A model generated the notes under the pieces. That model had not been told where the DNA came from. It saw nothing but the letters and a program-made list of their open reading frames with translations, and made no database searches. DNA of 20,000 nucleotides from an uncultured virus (IMG/VR IMGVR_UViG_3300032093_000084) (taxonomy: Duplodnaviria > Heunggongvirae > Uroviricota > Caudoviricetes). The stretch lies in the IMG/VR virus record IMGVR_UViG_3300032093_000084; one strand, written 5' to 3'. The first letter of the stretch is position 1. Every line of letters starts with the position of its first letter. Shown here one piece after another: positions 8,291 to 20,000 of this stretch. A program made the translations under genes and the position numbers.

Positions 8291-8536
8291 ATGAATAAAA
8301 AACAAAAACAACACCAAACTACGGTAGCAGGAAATCCATTAGCAGTTAATGTAATTGGTTCTGCAAGAGAAGATTTAGCATTTGCATTGAAAGCTTGGAA
8401 ACGTAAAGTAAAAGCATCAGGTATTTTAGAACGAGTTAAAGATCTCAAAGAATTTGAAAAACCTAGTGTAACAAAACGAAAACAACTTCAAGCAGCACAA
8501 TTTATTCAAAAAATTAGAAGTGCAAATCAAGATTAA
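8291..8536 (+). CDS. rpsU: phage-encoded 30S ribosomal protein bS21
   Basis: EDLAFALKAWKRKVKASGILERVKDLKEFEKPSVTKRKQ matches the bS21 signature (ALxxFKRK...G...F/Y-EKPS..KR); ~15 aa N-terminal extension. Confidence 0.9.
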   Translation: MNKKQKQHQTTVAGNPLAVNVIGSAREDLAFALKAWKRKVKASGILERVKDLKEFEKPSVTKRKQLQAAQFIQKIRSANQD

Positions 8537-8618: not shown

Positions 8619-8706
8619 TTGTAAATACGCTATCTCTTATATAGTGTCTAGTATTTATAAACTTTCTATTAAGATTCATAATAATCTTATTTCCAAAACA
8701 AAAATT

Positions 8707-11420: not shown

Positions 11421-11468
11421 TCGTTAATTTGATTTAATCATTTAACCAATTAATTAGTTAAGGTAAAA

Positions 11469-11500
11469 TAAGAGAGGGTGGCTTCGGTCACCCTTTCTTA
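11469..11500 (+). terminator. strong hairpin/terminator after the capsid gene
   Basis: TAAGAGAGGGTGGC-TTCG-GTCACCCTTTCTTA: 14-bp stem (2 G-U) with a cUUCGg tetraloop. Confidence 0.85.
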
Positions 11501-12514: not shown

Positions 12515-13747
12515 ATGGATTATTCAGAAAACAAACCAATTTGGCCAGGCTCATCTTCATTTACCGTTGGATCTACACCATTTGGTTTTTTTGATAACGA
12601 TTCCGTTTTCCGATCTCATGCAGATAAATTTGCAAAAGCAGCAGCACAACATTTAGGATATCCCATAATGGATGTAGAAATGCAAGCTATAAATTTTTAT
12701 ACTGCGTTTGAAGCGGCTGCAATTGAATATTCAAATCAAGTTAATCAAGTTAACATTGTTAATAATCTAATGAATACATTAGGTATTCAAACCGGTGCTG
12801 CATTTTTATCTAATAACGATGACAGTTTAACGGGAGCATTAGTTGGAAATTCTTTTGGATATATTACTAAATTATCAAAAGCATATGGCACAGAAGCAGA
12901 TTCTGGCGGTGATGTAGAATGGAGACAAGTTGCTATACAAATGGTACCTGGCCAACAAACATATAATATAAAAGATGCAATTTCATCTTCATTAGGTATA
13001 ACAGTAACTACTTCATCAGTTGAAATTAAACGAATACTTCATAATGCACCACCAGCAATTGTACGATATTTTGATCCATTTGTTGGCACCGGGTTAGGTT
13101 CACAACAATTGTTAGATTCATTTGATTTTGGTGGTTTTTCACCATCTGTATCATTCATGATGATGCCAATTCATGCAGACTTAATGCGTTTACAATCTAT
13201 TGAATTTAACGATCAAATACGTAAATCTAGTTATTCATTTGAAGTGCATGGCGATAATATAAAAATATGGCCAGTGCCAACTTCTGGTACAGGTTCATCA
13301 TCTGCAACGCCATTCTTTAAACAAGTATATGTAGAATTTATTTTTGATGATGATAAAAATAATCAATCCGTTTTATTTGGTAATAACGCACTTTTAAACA
13401 ATGTTATAACTGACGCATCAAATATACCATATACATATCAAACCTACGGGAAAATTAATGATATGGGTCGTGCGTGGATAATTAAATATGGTATTGCACT
13501 TGCAAAAGAAATGTTAGGTTATATTCGTAATAAATATTCATCAGTACCTATTCCAAATGGCGAAGTAACATTAAATGGTTCTGATTTGGTATCACAAGGC
13601 CAATCTGAAAAAGAAACATTGATAACTCAACTTAGGGAATTTTTAGATAAAATGACAAAAGAACAAATGATGACACGTCAAAACTCTGAGGCAACTCAAA
13701 TGCATGAAATGTTATCAAAAGTTCCATTAAAAATTTACGTTGGTTAA
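12515..13747 (+). CDS. neck / head-tail adaptor protein (T4 gp13-like)
   Basis: LGYPIMDVEM at the N-terminus and WIIKYGIALAKEMLGYIRNKYSSVPIPNGEVTLNG at the C-terminus resemble gp13 necks; synteny. Confidence 0.75.
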   Translation: MDYSENKPIWPGSSSFTVGSTPFGFFDNDSVFRSHADKFAKAAAQHLGYPIMDVEMQAINFYTAFEAAAIEYSNQVNQVNIVNNLMNTLGIQTGAAFLSNNDDSLTGALVGNSFGYITKLSKAYGTEADSGGDVEWRQVAIQMVPGQQTYNIKDAISSSLGITVTTSSVEIKRILHNAPPAIVRYFDPFVGTGLGSQQLLDSFDFGGFSPSVSFMMMPIHADLMRLQSIEFNDQIRKSSYSFEVHGDNIKIWPVPTSGTGSSSATPFFKQVYVEFIFDDDKNNQSVLFGNNALLNNVITDASNIPYTYQTYGKINDMGRAWIIKYGIALAKEMLGYIRNKYSSVPIPNGEVTLNGSDLVSQGQSEKETLITQLREFLDKMTKEQMMTRQNSEATQMHEMLSKVPLKIYVG

Positions 13748-13759
13748 GAAAGGATAAGT

Positions 13760-14278
13760 ATGGCTATTTTTGGCGGAATGCGAGATGCAAAATTTTTAGC
13801 ATCAATCAATTCTGAATTAATTAACGCAATTATAGATACTGAAATTGAGTTTTATAAATTAATAGTAGAACGTTCAGCTAGTAATTTATATGGCGAATCT
13901 GAATCTAAATCTTATTATGATTCTATTTTAATTCCATGTGTTATTACTAAAGAGGGTAAAACTGCAACAATGGATGATTATGGTCATTCTTATACAAGAA
14001 CGGCACAATTTGCAATATCTCGAGATATTTTAGAACGAGCGAGTTTTTATCCAGAGGTTGGAGATATTGTATTTTGGGATAATGAATATTATGAATTAGA
14101 TAATGTAGATGCAAACCAGTATTTTGCCGGAAAAAATCCAGATACTTGGCCAAACGGAAGTCAGTTTGGTTATAGCGTATCTATTATTTGTGATGCACAT
14201 GCAACTAGACAAACCCCAACAGGTATTACAAATTTAAGAAAAGGCGGTAATAATTTAAACCCGGCGTATAAAGGATAA
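13760..14278 (+). CDS. head completion / neck protein (T4 gp14-like)
   Basis: LYGES and YPEVGDIVFW..YYE pattern; follows the gp13-like gene. Confidence 0.6.
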   Translation: MAIFGGMRDAKFLASINSELINAIIDTEIEFYKLIVERSASNLYGESESKSYYDSILIPCVITKEGKTATMDDYGHSYTRTAQFAISRDILERASFYPEVGDIVFWDNEYYELDNVDANQYFAGKNPDTWPNGSQFGYSVSIICDAHATRQTPTGITNLRKGGNNLNPAYKG

Positions 14279-14281
14279 TGA

Positions 14282-15481
14282 ATGTCTAGATTAAATAGAA
14301 GAGATATTGATCGAAAAACAAATAAACCCAATCCTATACGTACAGAAGGTTTAACGCCTGATCGAATATTAGATCGCTCGCAACAAATTCGAAGAGATAA
14401 TGATATTATTCGAACTCCTAAACGAACTGTATATGATGTAGATTTTGCGGTAAAGTCATATATTGAAAATGTAATACAGCCGCAGATAACACAACAAGAA
14501 CAATTGATATCAGTACCAGTTATTTTTGCAAATGGTGAAAAATGGGATAATGTTCGTAGATTGGGATTTTTGCGTGATGAAAAAGGAATGCTTCAATCTC
14601 CATTAATGATGATAAAAAGAAATTCAGTTTCAGAACGAGATAACGTAAAAGGATTAGATGTTAATCGAAATCCTGCAGGAAATGTTCGTGCATACAAACA
14701 ACGTTATAATGAACGTAATCGATACGAAGATGAATTATTTCCAATACCGCAAAATAATCCAACATTATCAGATAAAATATATATTGTTGATATACCTAGA
14801 TATGTTAATATCGAATATGATTTAATGCTTTGGTGCGATTTTACTACGCAACTAAATGATTTAATTGATCAAATTATGCCTTATAGTAGATTTGCGTGGG
14901 GCAATGGATCAAATGTATTTCCTGTACAATTAGGTTCATTTTCATTTGAAATTATAAATACTATAGGAGAAGATCGTTTAGTTAGAGCTACAGTACCATT
15001 AACAGTGCAAGCAGCATTACTTTCTTCACAAGAAGCACGAGTAAATACATTACGTAAACAATTTTCTGTTAAAAAAGTTACATTTGAAAATGTAGTTTCA
15101 TATGATGATATATTTAATTCCACATCTGTACCAAATTCTATAGTTCAAAGTGGCGGGTCAATACAATTTGATGATAATATTTATTTAAAAATAACGCCAG
15201 AAATTATGAATTATTTAACAAATATTACAGAACAACAAGCTACATATGCATCAGCTACTACAGTAACTATTGCAGCCGCGGCAGCAACTAATCCAATAAC
15301 ATCTGGCACTGCAACTAAAAATGAATTCGATGTATATATAAACGGCCAATATGCTGACAAAATTACATATACATGGACGCCTACTACATCTGCTACGCAA
15401 ACAATTGTATTTAATACTGCAGAATTAGGTTTTAATATTTTATCAACAGATGTAATAATTGTGAAAGGTAGGTGGGCATAA
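14282..15481 (+). CDS. tail terminator / sheath stabiliser-like protein (T4 gp15-like) with C-terminal beta-rich extension
   Basis: VPVIFANGEKW, P.YVNIEYDLMLW, QLNDLIDQIMP resemble gp15-type proteins; synteny. Confidence 0.6.
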   Translation: MSRLNRRDIDRKTNKPNPIRTEGLTPDRILDRSQQIRRDNDIIRTPKRTVYDVDFAVKSYIENVIQPQITQQEQLISVPVIFANGEKWDNVRRLGFLRDEKGMLQSPLMMIKRNSVSERDNVKGLDVNRNPAGNVRAYKQRYNERNRYEDELFPIPQNNPTLSDKIYIVDIPRYVNIEYDLMLWCDFTTQLNDLIDQIMPYSRFAWGNGSNVFPVQLGSFSFEIINTIGEDRLVRATVPLTVQAALLSSQEARVNTLRKQFSVKKVTFENVVSYDDIFNSTSVPNSIVQSGGSIQFDDNIYLKITPEIMNYLTNITEQQATYASATTVTIAAAAATNPITSGTATKNEFDVYINGQYADKITYTWTPTTSATQTIVFNTAELGFNILSTDVIIVKGRWA

Positions 15482-15810
15482 TGTCTAGACAATTTAGACC
15501 AGGACAATTACAAACCGGTTCATTATTTAATATATCTTCTAGCTATGCTGTAACTGCATCATATGCACTTAATAGCGTTGGCGGTACCGGATTCCCATTC
15601 TCAGGAAGTGCTGTAATTACCGGTTCATTAGAAATCAAAAGTGATATTAATAGTATCTTTATAATTAAAAATTTTAATAATCAGCCTATATTAACAGTAT
15701 CACAAAGTGGTGTTGTTGTTTTAGCAACACAAAGTATAGAATTAACAAATCCAGCGCCAGTAGGTGCAATCTATTTTACTTCATCTTCATTTTTTGTTGG
15801 ATTAGAATAA
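15481..15810 (+). CDS. small virion/fibre-associated protein
   Basis: ATG 15481 overlaps the upstream TAA (TAATG); SSSYAVTASYA and FPFSGSAVITGSL fibre-like motifs. Confidence 0.7.
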   Translation: MSRQFRPGQLQTGSLFNISSSYAVTASYALNSVGGTGFPFSGSAVITGSLEIKSDINSIFIIKNFNNQPILTVSQSGVVVLATQSIELTNPAPVGAIYFTSSSFFVGLE

Positions 15811-15825
15811 AAAAAAAATTAACAT

Positions 15826-15833
15826 ATATTTAT
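15826..15833 (+). promoter_or_regulatory. putative late promoter motif ATATTTAT
   Basis: Intergenic; 23 nt before ATG 15857. Confidence 0.6.
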
Positions 15834-15856
15834 ATTAAAAAATAAGGAATTTTATA

Positions 15857-17305
15857 ATGGCAACTTGGAAAAAAGTAGTAGTATCCGGTAGTAACGTATC
15901 GCAATTAGTCAATGACGCTGGTTATTTAACATCAGTAACCGCACAGGCAGCATTTGCAACTGCATCATATGATGGTACGTTATTATTAGCAAATGGCGCT
16001 AATGGTAATTTAACATTTGCATCATCATCGGGTCAAGGTTTAAATATATCAGCAAACTCAGGTACAGACACATTAACATTTGGTTTAAGTGCTATTCCAA
16101 ATACAAGTTTAGCTAACTCTGCAGTAACAGTAACTGCAGGCAACGGTTTAACTGATGGCGGATCTGTATCATTAGGTGGTTCGACAACATTAAATGTTGG
16201 AGCTGGCACGCATATTACCGTTAATGCTAATGACATTGCAGTTAACACTACAACATTAATACCAGCAATATCAGGTTCAATTTTAACTACAGTATCAGGT
16301 GATATCGCAATCACTGCACAAGGTGTTGCAACAATACAAGCTAACTCAGTAGCATTAGGTACTGACACGACAGGTAACTATGCAGCTGCAGTGAGTGCAG
16401 GAAGCGGCATCTTTGTTGGCGGTACGGCTGGCGAAGGTACGACCTTTACGGTATCTGCAGATTCTGCATCATTGGCGACATATTTTCGTCAAGATGCATA
16501 TGCAAACGTAAGTGGTGATATTACAATTAACTCATCAGGCGTTGCAGCAATTGGAACGGGAGTAATTGTTAATGCTGATGTTAATGCATCTGCCGCAATT
16601 GCAGCCTCTAAAATAAATTTCACAGGAACATCATTTGTATCTGCATCGGTTTTATCTAGTCCAGGTCAGGGTCAAGCATTATTAACAACAAATGGCGTTG
16701 CTGGTTCAACTATTGATTTAGGTTTAGAGACAGGAGACTCACCTCAATTTGTTGCATTAACATTAACAGGCGATGCAGCAGTTAATGGTGGCGATATTAC
16801 AACATCAGCTACTACATTTAACTTAGTTAATTCAAATGCAACTACAGTTAACTTTGCGGGCGCTGCAACAACATTAAATATTGGTAATGCATCTGGCACA
16901 GCAACAATTGCAGGTAATGCAATAGTTCAAGGTGACTTTACCGTTAATGGTACTACAACATATCTTAACGTACAAGATCTTTTTGTAGAAGATAAATTTA
17001 TTATATTGGCATCTGGTTCAGCAACAGCTGGCGATGGTGGTATTATTATTGACCGCGGTTCTGATGCTGCTGGTAATATTGCATACGGATATGATTCAGT
17101 AACAGATCGTTGGGGATTTCAATCAGGTGTTACAGATACAACTAACACAATAGATCCAACATCTGCATCTGGCGTTAGCGGATCGTTTGTAGCATATGTA
17201 TTTACAGAAAATGATCATGGTGCAACAAAACCAATTACCGGTGAGTTTGCAGTTCAAGGCGCACTATATACATCAAATGCTGGCGATATTTGGATTTATG
17301 CATAA
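15857..17305 (+). CDS. tail-fibre-like structural protein (Gly/Ala/Ser/Thr-rich beta repeats)
   Basis: 482 aa; repeated VSGDIxIxxxGVAxI; GDFTVNGTTTYLN...VEDKFI.L fibre-type motif; TAAGGA SD. Confidence 0.75.
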   Translation: MATWKKVVVSGSNVSQLVNDAGYLTSVTAQAAFATASYDGTLLLANGANGNLTFASSSGQGLNISANSGTDTLTFGLSAIPNTSLANSAVTVTAGNGLTDGGSVSLGGSTTLNVGAGTHITVNANDIAVNTTTLIPAISGSILTTVSGDIAITAQGVATIQANSVALGTDTTGNYAAAVSAGSGIFVGGTAGEGTTFTVSADSASLATYFRQDAYANVSGDITINSSGVAAIGTGVIVNADVNASAAIAASKINFTGTSFVSASVLSSPGQGQALLTTNGVAGSTIDLGLETGDSPQFVALTLTGDAAVNGGDITTSATTFNLVNSNATTVNFAGAATTLNIGNASGTATIAGNAIVQGDFTVNGTTTYLNVQDLFVEDKFIILASGSATAGDGGIIIDRGSDAAGNIAYGYDSVTDRWGFQSGVTDTTNTIDPTSASGVSGSFVAYVFTENDHGATKPITGEFAVQGALYTSNAGDIWIYA

Positions 17306-17323
17306 AATTATATATAATAAGTT

Positions 17324-17515
17324 ATGGGCCTCATTAAAAATATTATTTCAAAAAATAACGAAACTCAAGTTTCTAGTGTTAATCAATTAGATACACAGGA
17401 ACTTGAGTTTCTACTAAATACACTCAAACAAACAATGATTATGGGAGAACATGTAGAAATGTTTTATAATCTAGTAATCAAGTTACAAAATCAATATGTT
17501 GATCAAACAAAATAA
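17324..17515 (+). CDS. small hypothetical protein (paralogue of the next ORF)
   Basis: 63 aa; aligns without gaps to 17522-17707. Confidence 0.7.
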   Translation: MGLIKNIISKNNETQVSSVNQLDTQELEFLLNTLKQTMIMGEHVEMFYNLVIKLQNQYVDQTK

Positions 17516-17521
17516 CAAGTT

Positions 17522-17707
17522 ATGGATTTATTTTCTATAGATTTAACGCCGCAAGAAATTAGTATTTGTAGGCAAGCATTAGACATTATTACTATTACAG
17601 GTAAAGATGCAAAAACTATTGCAGGTCTACAAATGAAATTGGAATCAGAAATTGCAAACATTGCTGCGCAAATAGATTCAAATCAATCTACTAAAAAATC
17701 TAGATAA
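17522..17707 (+). CDS. small hypothetical protein (paralogue of the previous ORF)
   Basis: 61 aa; shares the LxxQE...L....IxG........LxxKL pattern. Confidence 0.7.
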   Translation: MDLFSIDLTPQEISICRQALDIITITGKDAKTIAGLQMKLESEIANIAAQIDSNQSTKKSR

Positions 17708-17708
17708 C

Positions 17709-17716
17709 ATATTTAT
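17709..17716 (+). promoter_or_regulatory. putative late promoter motif ATATTTAT
   Basis: Intergenic; precedes the structured leader of the collagen-like gene. Confidence 0.6.
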
Positions 17717-17726
17717 AATAAATTGA

Positions 17727-17788
17727 GATTACTGGCCGCAAGGAAGTAGGCGCACACACGGCATAAGTGTATGTATCTAACCGTAATC
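17727..17788 (+). ncRNA. candidate structured cis-regulatory RNA (three-way junction) in the 5' leader
   Basis: GATTAC/GTAATC closing stem, CC-GCAA-GG GNRA hairpin, TAGG.GCACACAC/GTGTATGT.TCTA hairpin; GC-rich relative to the other intergenic gaps. Confidence 0.55.
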
Positions 17789-17804
17789 CACAAGGAAATA
17801 TAAT

Positions 17805-20000
17805 ATGCCAAACTGGAAAAAAGTCATAGTATCAGGCTCGAGTGCTGCCTTAACCTCAGTAACTGCAACCGCAGGATTTACAGGATCTTTATTAGGTAAC
17901 GCATCAACAGCTACCTCAGCATCATTTGCTACTTCTTCATCATTTGCTCAATTTGCAGCAACCCCAACCGTTCAGGGTGTTCAAGGTATAACCGGTACGC
18001 AAGGCACTGTCGGCGCCCAGGGAACGGTCGGCACACAAGGTACGACAGGTGCTCAGGGAACAACTGGTACGCAAGGAGTTACTGGTACACAAGGAGCCGT
18101 AGGCTCGCAAGGTGTAACGGGAACACAAGGTACCGTAGGTGCTCAAGGCGCAACTGGTACGCAAGGCGCTATAGGTACACAAGGTGCTATCGGACCACAA
18201 GGTACCGTAGGCTCGCAAGGTACCACCGGAGCACAAGGTGTGGCTGGTGCACAAGGTACTGTAGGTACGCAAGGTACGGTAGGTGCACAAGGTACGACGG
18301 GTACGCAAGGGGCCGTTGGATCACAAGGTGTAACAGGAACACAAGGTGCTGTCGGTACGCAAGGTGTTACTGGAACACAAGGAATTCAAGGAGTTTTAGG
18401 TACGCAAGGTACCATGGGCGCACAAGGTGTCACGGGAACGCAGGGCGCAACGGGAACACAGGGAACCGTTGGTACGCAAGGAGTCACGGGAGCACAAGGC
18501 ACTGTAGGAGCACAAGGTACAAATGGTACGCAGGGAACGACCGGTACTCAGGGAACTACGGGAGCACAAGGAGTTACAGGTTCACAAGGTACAGTAGGTG
18601 CAACCGGTGCTCAAGGTACAACCGGTGCTCAAGGCACAGTTGGTACAACGGGAGCCCAGGGCACAACTGGTACGCAAGGCGTTCAAGGAACTGTTGGTAC
18701 GCAAGGTACTACAGGTACGCAAGGAACGTTAGGTACCCAAGGTACAGATGGGTCATTCGGCGGAGCAACATTTGATTATACATTTGATACATCAACAACT
18801 GCTGCAGATCCAGGTACTGGTAAGGTTCGTTTAAATAATGCAACTGAAAATACAGCTACGGCGATGTATATAGATGCTACGACGGATCAATCTGCCAATA
18901 TAGATTCTTTCTTAAACACAATTAATGCTGTATCATCAGCTATAAAAGGATATGTGCGTATTGCAAACCGTACGGATGCAACACAATTCCTATTATTCCA
19001 GATCTCAGCATTAACTAATAATACGGGTTGGTGGACATTAACAATAACTAACCAAGCATTTTCTGCCGCATCACCATTTACTAACTTAGAAGATATTATA
19101 GTATCTTTTGTAACTACTGGTGATAAAGGTGCACAAGGTACCGTTGGTACGCAAGGTGCAATTGGTACGCAAGGAGCCGTAGGCACCCAAGGCACCGTTG
19201 GTACACAGGGCATCGTTGGCACGACGGGAACACAAGGTACGGTAGGTGCAACTGGTGCACAAGGTACGACTGGTGCTCAGGGAACATTGGGAACGCAAGG
19301 CGTTACTGGAGCACAAGGTACGGTAGGTGCAACTGGTTCACAAGGCACGACGGGTGCACAAGGAATCCAAGGTGTTCTTGGTACGCAAGGTACGGTAGGA
19401 GCTCAGGGTACTGTCGGTACGCAAGGAGCCGTAGGCTCGCAAGGCGCCACCGGAGCTCAAGGGGTGGCTGGTGCACAAGGTACTACGGGAGCACAAGGTA
19501 CAGTAGGTACAACCGGTTCTCAAGGTACAACGGGTACGCAAGGTGCAACAGGTGCTCAGGGAATTCAAGGTATTCTTGGTACGCAGGGTGCTACAGGAGC
19601 ACAAGGAGCCGTAGGCTCGCAAGGTACAACAGGTGCACAAGGTACCGTTGGTACACAAGGCATCACCGGCGCTCAAGGTACGGTAGGTACGCAAGGTACA
19701 ACTGGTACGCAAGGTACTACGGGAGGTACGGGAGCACAAGGCGTTACGGGAGCACAAGGTACGGTAGGTACCACAGGTGCCCAAGGTGCAACTGGTAGCA
19801 CAGGAGCACAAGGTACAGTCGGCGCTCAAGGAACGCAAGGTATTCTTGGAACGCAAGGTGTTACTGGTACACAAGGTACACAAGGTACAAATGCTACTAC
19901 ATCAATAACAAATAACGTAAATAATTATGTAGTTACAGCAACCGGCGGAGCAACTCCATTTAACGGAGAAGCTAATATGACCTTTGATGGGTCTACATTG
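17805..20000 (+). CDS. 3'-truncated collagen-like fibre protein (>732 aa)
   Basis: ATG 17805 ([12 protein letters not shown]...), AAGGA at 17792-17796, frame open to the window end (...[12 protein letters not shown]); two long Gly-X-Y tracts. Absent from the ORF track because there is no stop in the window. Confidence 0.92.
17976..18749 (+). repeat. collagen Gly-X-Y tract 1 (86 triplets; GTQ/GAQ alternating with GTV/GTT/GVT)
   Basis: 9/18-nt periodicity GGN-ACN/GCN-CAR; first and last Gly are 774 nt in register. Confidence 0.9.
19119..19892 (+). repeat. collagen Gly-X-Y tract 2 (86 triplets)
   Basis: Runs from GDK GAQ to GTQ GTN, 774 nt in register. Confidence 0.9.

Follow-up and report, generated by a model that had tools for sequence, protein, structure and literature searches.

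A conserved three-way-junction RNA element ahead of a tail-fibre gene in aquatic phages, a candidate translational off-switch

Translational riboswitches of the SAM-III, SAM-SAH and preQ1 types bury the Shine-Dalgarno (SD) sequence or the start codon in P1 or in a pseudoknot. In phage T4, the gene 32 pseudoknot lies about 67 nt upstream and nucleates the binding of gp32 over an unstructured A+U tract (PMC3014915, accessible portion), and the second site of ribosomal protein uS15 is a GU/GC element about 10 bp from the junction (PMC4684408). Few structured operators of phage structural genes have been described. The RNA element considered here is conserved, is not catalogued in Rfam and lies before one tail-fibre gene class in far more than 100 related sequences of aquatic phages, in which freshwater and marine lineages are both represented.

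Like the T4 operators (gene 32 with gp32, and the RegA sites), the element combines leader structure near the start, a proposed protein-dependent repression and a pseudoknot; it differs from gene 32 in its three-way-junction core, in a predicted pseudoknot that captures the AUG itself and in serving a virion fibre gene. An operator of the gene 32 type was considered and rejected, as no stand-alone pseudoknot stands before an A+U tract and the downstream gene encodes a fibre, not an SSB. With the riboswitches the element shares a near-invariant core and variable platforms predicted to hide the initiation site, but it is found in phages only, serves a structural gene and has no Rfam match, and its ligand is putative. 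A platform that overlaps the initiation site, or a mutually exclusive fold, is predicted in three groups of leaders, and none is readable in 56/147. The uS15 (rpsO) leaders, with the E. coli rpsO pseudoknot, likewise place a compact junction near the start, with similar linkers and wiring that varies between lineages (PMC4684408), whereas the element has no GU/GC one turn away, does not lie upstream of rpsO and gives no Rfam score. The linkers of the 16S h20/h21/h22 junction are 0/3/2 (E. coli sequence), against 0/3/1 in the element. At places comparable to the G-G-C base triple of the uS15 junction, G, G and C are present in 99/100 sequences, with A-U in phage immuto.

A likeness of the core words to SRP helix 8, the ZTP aptamer and the 23S GTPase centre was set aside, as the pairing in these differs and no Rfam score is obtained. 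Mining of IMG/VR intergenic regions has yielded 8,495 RNA candidates (PMC10690425, available part); these and GP20-a/b resemble the element in being covarying motifs within 25 nt of one phage gene class, as far as the accessible text goes. Identity with GP20-a/b was rejected, Rfam being negative. Six core 10-mers have no match in four of the six text files of PMC10690425, and the element may stand, unnamed, among its automated candidates; these aside, the literature searched holds no description of the motif.

The window, a 20,000-nt stretch of an uncultured virus of the Caudoviricetes (IMG/VR IMGVR_UViG_3300032093_000084), is the structural module, in a large aquatic phage of the T4-like kind, with terminase, portal, prohead, capsid, neck and fibre genes. 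The closest capsid relative among 50,697 phage records is that of Flavobacterium phage immuto (57.5% identity). The window contains:

8291-8536, + strand: bS21, a phage-encoded ribosomal protein (PF01165, E 3.9e-9), among the head genes
15857..17305, + strand: fibre-like paralog lying upstream, which shares the WKK N-terminus, has Ala2 and lacks the RNA motif; an internal control
17324..17515, + strand: small gene A, 63 aa, predicted to form a helical hairpin; most loci read have it ahead of the motif
17522..17707, + strand: small gene B, 61 aa, paralog of A (probability 89%, E 2e-6); missing in many lineages
17710..17717, + strand: promoter-like octamer TATTTATA, a candidate late promoter
17805..20000, + strand: collagen-like tail-fibre gene downstream of the RNA element, truncated by the end of the contig after at least 732 aa

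The downstream gene matches the PHROG tail fibre at E 4.5e-100 and PF01391 at E 1.6e-76, and the N-terminus behind the motif reads MP(N/S)WKK. Phages carrying bS21 have been tied to Bacteroidetes hosts (PMC9723584; PMC9976891, both in part), a link that suggests a Bacteroidetes host for this phage. Mel-JY01 carries bS21 at a similar place.

The octamer TATTTATA occurs in the window at 8652, 11510, 12490, 15827 and 17710 (+) and is not over-represented within it. Genome-wide, 14/22 copies on the + strand and 1/6 on the - strand stand 14-87 nt before the start of a long ORF, and a search of the + strand at the leader found no sigma-70 site. In reverse complement the octamer gives that of the T4 late promoters; should it act as a late promoter, no more than a few bases would separate the 5' end from the RNA fold. 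The initial annotation, made from the letters of this DNA, gave a gap of 88 nt from the promoter motif to the ATG, and the distance is indeed 87 nt after the 8-nt octamer or 88 after TATTTAT; it also called the gap GC-rich, and its GC fraction is 0.40 (0.48 in the motif), whereas nine other gaps of the window have values of 0.06-0.27. The leader and the start of the gene consist of the following parts:

17727..17735, + strand: P1 5' strand, with GATTAC (17727-32) as the 6-bp outer helix, bulged U 17733 and GG 17734-35
17736..17743, + strand: P2 hairpin, CC-GCAA-GG
17744..17746, + strand: junction AAG
17747..17779, + strand: P3 arm, with U-A, R-Y and G-C pairs, a 2-nt bulge on the 3' side, a G-U wobble, C-G and a variable stem
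17760..17766, + strand: P3 loop GGCAUAA, complementary to the start-codon region
17780..17788, + strand: junction A 17780 and P1 3' strand, CC 17781-82 and GTAATC 17783-88
17792..17796, + strand: SD-like AAGGA, after CAC; the ATG is at 17805
17804..17809, + strand: UAUGCC, the start codon with the first two bases of Pro2; predicted pseudoknot partner

Reading of the sequence bears out the placing of P1, P2, AAG, P3 and the spacing in the initial annotation. The apical register of P3, with its 7-nt loop, stands too, and is supported by the closing pair in the element's own subfamily (C-G 21, U-A 4, U-G 1; n=26). The base of P3 has to be redrawn: G17750-T17776 with a bulged C is not the family pairing, in which C17751 pairs with G17773 (C-G in 100/100) and G17750 with U17774, and A17775-U17776 are bulged. 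The minimum free energy fold of the lone sequence is the three-way junction as annotated (-14.4 kcal/mol), but it is not significant against shuffles (z -0.67; 46/200 shuffles as good). That no known riboswitch is recognisable agrees with Rfam 15, in which the motif has no match, whether at E<=5 with the whole window or at E<=10 with 161 nt; eight homologous loci give only two weak matches, far below threshold. No second copy of the element is present in the window or in its own genome. Matches from RNA runs, in which the contigs make up a small share, are uninformative either way, no listed piece spanning 17675-17765. The two A's of AAGGA fall at positions -13 and -12, known determinants of initiation in Bacteroidia (PMC9976891, accessible part), which leaves SD use at AAGGA uncertain.

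Homologues were collected by pattern: an RNA-core pattern yielded 75 stretches from the viral collection, a gene-anchored pattern 131 of about 600, and another core pattern 120 of some 480. Parsed strictly, these contained 165 distinct contexts, one of which proved to be a false parse, leaving 164. The cultured Flavobacterium phage immuto carries the element before a 'putative tail fiber-like protein', and immuto and each of four near-complete IMG/VR genomes hold a single copy (5/5 records). Of three more distant cultured or curated relatives, Mel-JY01, LR756508 and RM378, none has the element (0/3). Among 185,579 prokaryote species genomes (GTDB) the pattern matches three contigs, each with the same phage gene block. 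These contigs (L338, L339 and L340) come from MAGs labelled Pelagibacter, Bifidobacterium and Flavobacteriales, and the phage block is likely binned phage DNA. Cellular copies sought in about 150 Flavobacteriales genomes came down to two weak matches (21-26 bits), without helices on reading, as was one further match (G002).

The three-way-junction fold is real and conserved, to a degree of near certainty, and the support for it above chance comes from covariation, since folding of the single sequence is unremarkable. Of the 18 pairs in a MAFFT alignment of 39 diverse members, 11 show two-sided change; here and in a model-fitted alignment of 100 sequences, 95% of the cells pair and the covariation score was reached by none of 500 shuffles. 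RNAalifold, unaided, returns the same junction with an extra G-U wobble, A-C in one sequence. The check for covariation that the initial annotation proposed thus finds compensatory change beyond a tree-aware null in P1 and P3. This null, an R-scape-like test of our own and not R-scape itself (FastTree, Fitch, 150 simulated alignments), leaves 5/1378 column pairs at E<0.05, all of them predicted pairs, two in P1 and three in P3. P2 alone is not significant in the same test (E 15; its testable pair has four double changes and no mismatch), while 99.6% of its cells are paired in the alignment of 100, and its stem length and loop vary among relatives (GNRA, UUCG, longer loops). A possible tertiary contact between columns 52 and 84 (E 0.09) has exceptions both ways and was not accepted.

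The resulting consensus comprises the outer P1, a bulged U or A (U in 90, A in 10; n=100), GG/CC, the opening C-G of P2, AAG (99/100; GAG 1/100), P3 and a single A leading back to P1, with the inner P1 pair swapped from G-C to A-U in immuto. About 18 positions form a riboswitch-like core, 98-100% conserved in 100 sequences, a figure inflated by the search patterns, two of three of which fixed these positions. The wobble pairs and the exchange of GNRA for UUCG point to RNA rather than DNA as the functional form. The initial annotation's proposal of an undescribed cis-element tied to the fibre gene finds support in the covariation and in the fixed position of the motif, and the element is conserved; what the annotation missed is that a loop is complementary to the start codon.

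In the window, the P3 loop at 17760-65 is complementary to UAUGCC at 17804-09, a predicted helix of 6 bp (-9.1 kcal/mol as a bare duplex). The relation was followed in 147 leaders, that is, contexts with a start within 60 nt, one mis-parse dropped and duplicates collapsed. All 147 genes begin AUGCC, and a loop complementary to the start is present in 91/147 leaders, against 14.5 +/- 3.5 for shuffled loops; the complementarity falls to 3/147 when +4 is read as G. It resides in the P3 loop in 54 leaders (GGCAU, GGUAU) and in the P2 loop in 37 (UGGCA, UGGCG, UGGUA). U stands at -1 in 48/54 leaders of the P3-loop group, where the third base of codon 2 is free (pyrimidine in 10/54), and in 1/37 of the P2-loop group, where that third base is a purine in 37/37; the groups are lineages, representing about three or four events, and Fisher tests overstate the differences between them. 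The bases at -1 and in codon 2 are, in each group, those that its predicted pairing register requires. Such complementarity gives the element a predicted direction, namely off.

Several observations qualify the pairing. The remaining 56/147 leaders have no complementary loop yet keep AUGCC, ten of them with GGCA atop P3, so pairing alone possibly does not explain Pro2. In an alignment of 26 sequences the pseudoknot helix has no two-sided compensatory change, only wobble-compatible one-sided ones, as the start is invariant; two rows counted as broken in this alignment are aligned one column off. In a gene-anchored sample (n=117), Pro2 follows the motif in 31/31 genes and Ala2 is found in 79/86 without it, and at three orthologous positions without the motif the fibre gene has Ala2 and starts 2-4 nt after the gene A stop. 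Pro2 may be partly inherited or a need of the protein. A start compensated for a non-Pro codon (motif plus non-C at +4) was found in no viral contig; the same search of metagenomes returned 13 matches, seven by chance and six true, none compensated. Five of the six true non-Pro starts, from three lineages, are without a GGCA loop, as the pseudoknot model predicts, and the sixth, L358, counts against the pseudoknot: its loop is kept and its start mismatched and uncompensated. Pairing of the coding GCCAA with the invariant UUGGC of P1 was rejected as an alternative helix, since leaders with a bulged A still have CCA in 9/10 and CCU in none.

The other leaders appear to reach the start by different routes. 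All 37 leaders of the P2 group have an SD-like word, the 4-mer of which overlaps the 3' strand of P1 in 32/37; in the P3 group only 19/54 have an SD-like 4-mer. A promoter-like motif lies upstream in 53/54 P3-group leaders, where it ends 11-17 nt before the P1 bulge, versus 1/37 of the P2 group, and in many leaders of the latter P1 begins 0-3 nt from the gene A stop codon. The distance from the junction CC to the AUG is mostly 14-23 nt. Eight loci (five distinct) have instead a 100-nt spacer, the distal part of which can pair with the 5' strand of P1 and the 3' strand of P2. This rival fold lies 8-11 kcal/mol below the forced junction in all four leaders folded, 3/4 of which acquire a hairpin at the start when the junction is forced. 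L352 has a G-to-A change whose two alternative partners, one in P2 and one in the rival fold, have each changed from C to U. Loci L345-L352 (about 592-779, motif strand) have, besides the conserved rival fold, an extra internal hairpin. A second long-spacer type, L279:488-640 (+), starts at GUG (GUGCC), and no rival fold reaches significance there (z -0.84).

Control of fibre translation in cis by the element is very probable, and for the specific form preferred here, a protein-triggered translational off-switch at the fibre start, we put the probability at about 0.5. On this view the folded RNA would hide the initiation site once a putative partner, most likely a protein of the phage, had bound the junction and stabilised it; all three readable platforms predict that folded means off. 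In the lineage of the window, the P3 loop and UAUGCC would form a pseudoknot. A second lineage would use the P2 loop, paired with UGCCA, and enclose the SD in P1. In a third, the stabler rival fold of the 100-nt spacer would free the start, and formation of the junction would release a hairpin next to the AUG. In most of the remaining leaders the end of P1 is some 8-14 nt upstream of the AUG, where it likely falls within the ribosome footprint. The likely purpose would be to keep production of a long and costly fibre in step with its docking sites or its assembly factors. A ligand is suggested because helices alone would not need an invariant core, and a protein because a single structural gene is served; the protein binding and control of fibre stoichiometry proposed in the initial annotation would fit such a scheme. 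As a first guess, the ligand could be unassembled fibre, acting autogenously through its WKK N-terminal peptide, the sole conserved part of both fibre paralogs in the stretches read. Bacteroidia ribosomes largely ignore SD sequences, for which reason capture of the AUG would suit such hosts and be a possible route of repression in them.

Proteins A and B are ligand candidates by position, and possibly fibre assembly factors. Both are predicted to be helical hairpins, paralogous to one another, of about 25-50% identity and with few conserved basic residues. Neither gene has a Pfam or PHROG family, and protein A has no Atlas family and no Foldseek match at E<=0.001. Against either as the partner, proteins so weakly conserved fit poorly with a near-invariant RNA core. 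In the 117-gene sample, gene A persists where the motif is lost.

The near-invariance of about 18 core positions, while neighbouring proteins diverge to about 25% identity, and interchangeable platforms on one constant core, an established trait of riboswitches, would also suit a small-molecule riboswitch, whose invariant junction would be a pocket for a host metabolite or ion and whose platforms would turn the fibre gene off. Such a switch would be a phage-only aptamer class with three independently wired platforms, tuning the adsorption apparatus to the state of the host. It is nonetheless unlikely, since only one gene class, a virion structural one, lies downstream, and no cellular copy exists among the 185,579 genomes, the three matches all having phage context. 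Unlikely to a similar degree is a ligand-free damper, a fold that sets a fixed, lowered initiation and is opened by ribosomes finishing the adjacent upstream gene: the proximity of P1 to the gene A stop in many P2-group leaders and the direct coupling of the fibre start to that stop in motif-less lineages speak for it, but it would need neither invariant junction bases nor a conserved bulge and a conserved G-U/A-C wobble, and in 53/54 P3-group leaders a promoter-like motif separates the upstream gene from the fold.

A conserved host ligand would also explain the invariant core if the element mimicked a site in host rRNA and were recognised by uS15 or another ribosomal protein of the host, so that fibre synthesis depended on free r-protein; these phages carry bS21, and the 0/3/1 linkers, the closing G-C and the G that ends the 3-nt linker resemble the 16S junction. 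This origin is decidedly improbable given that the second-site GU/GC is missing (the wobble lies 4 bp from the junction and is followed by C-G), that P3 can be just 6 bp (L313), that the closing pair is A-U in immuto and that no Rfam r-protein leader scores. A stabiliser of the 5' end, a processing signal or a small ribozyme that sets the level of fibre mRNA is quite improbable. The promoter-like motif close before P1 in the P3 group means that the fold would cap the 5' end there, but 36/37 P2-group leaders have no such motif upstream, and the fold often sits at the stop codon of the upstream gene and is thus not always at a 5' end; the loop-start complementarity and the rival fold would go unexplained, and no ribozyme family matches. 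Of the initial annotation's 'protein-binding or stabilising' element, it is accordingly the stabilising option that is weakened, the conserved cis-element itself standing. The conserved spacing to the AUG would agree with a translational enhancer, drawing ribosomes to a fibre message in high demand, but this reading is very improbable indeed, for all three readable platforms would cover the start or the SD when the junction is folded, and initiation in Bacteroidia favours low structure (PMC9976891, accessible part).

With the protein-triggered off-switch as the preferred reading, a constant core joined to interchangeable start-hiding designs offers a natural experiment in the evolution of RNA switches, and immuto, a cultured member with a Flavobacterium host, is open to direct test. 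Once found, the ligand would reveal a riboswitch class not yet known or else a new RNA-binding regulator of phages.

Some minor observations concern the fibre locus and the window at large. In L067 from 673 and in L302 from 375 (+), the start codon immediately after the RNA motif is taken over by a reading frame that is HNH-like by its HH..P motif and retains Met-Pro-Asn. A remnant of this frame is what L302 has, with the fibre gene starting about 190 nt later. A strong hairpin at 11467-11498 (+), after the major capsid gene (z -3.8), is likely an intrinsic terminator, and Ser/Thr-Gly/Ala-Ser triplets repeat in the neck and fibre proteins encoded at 12515-17900 of the window.
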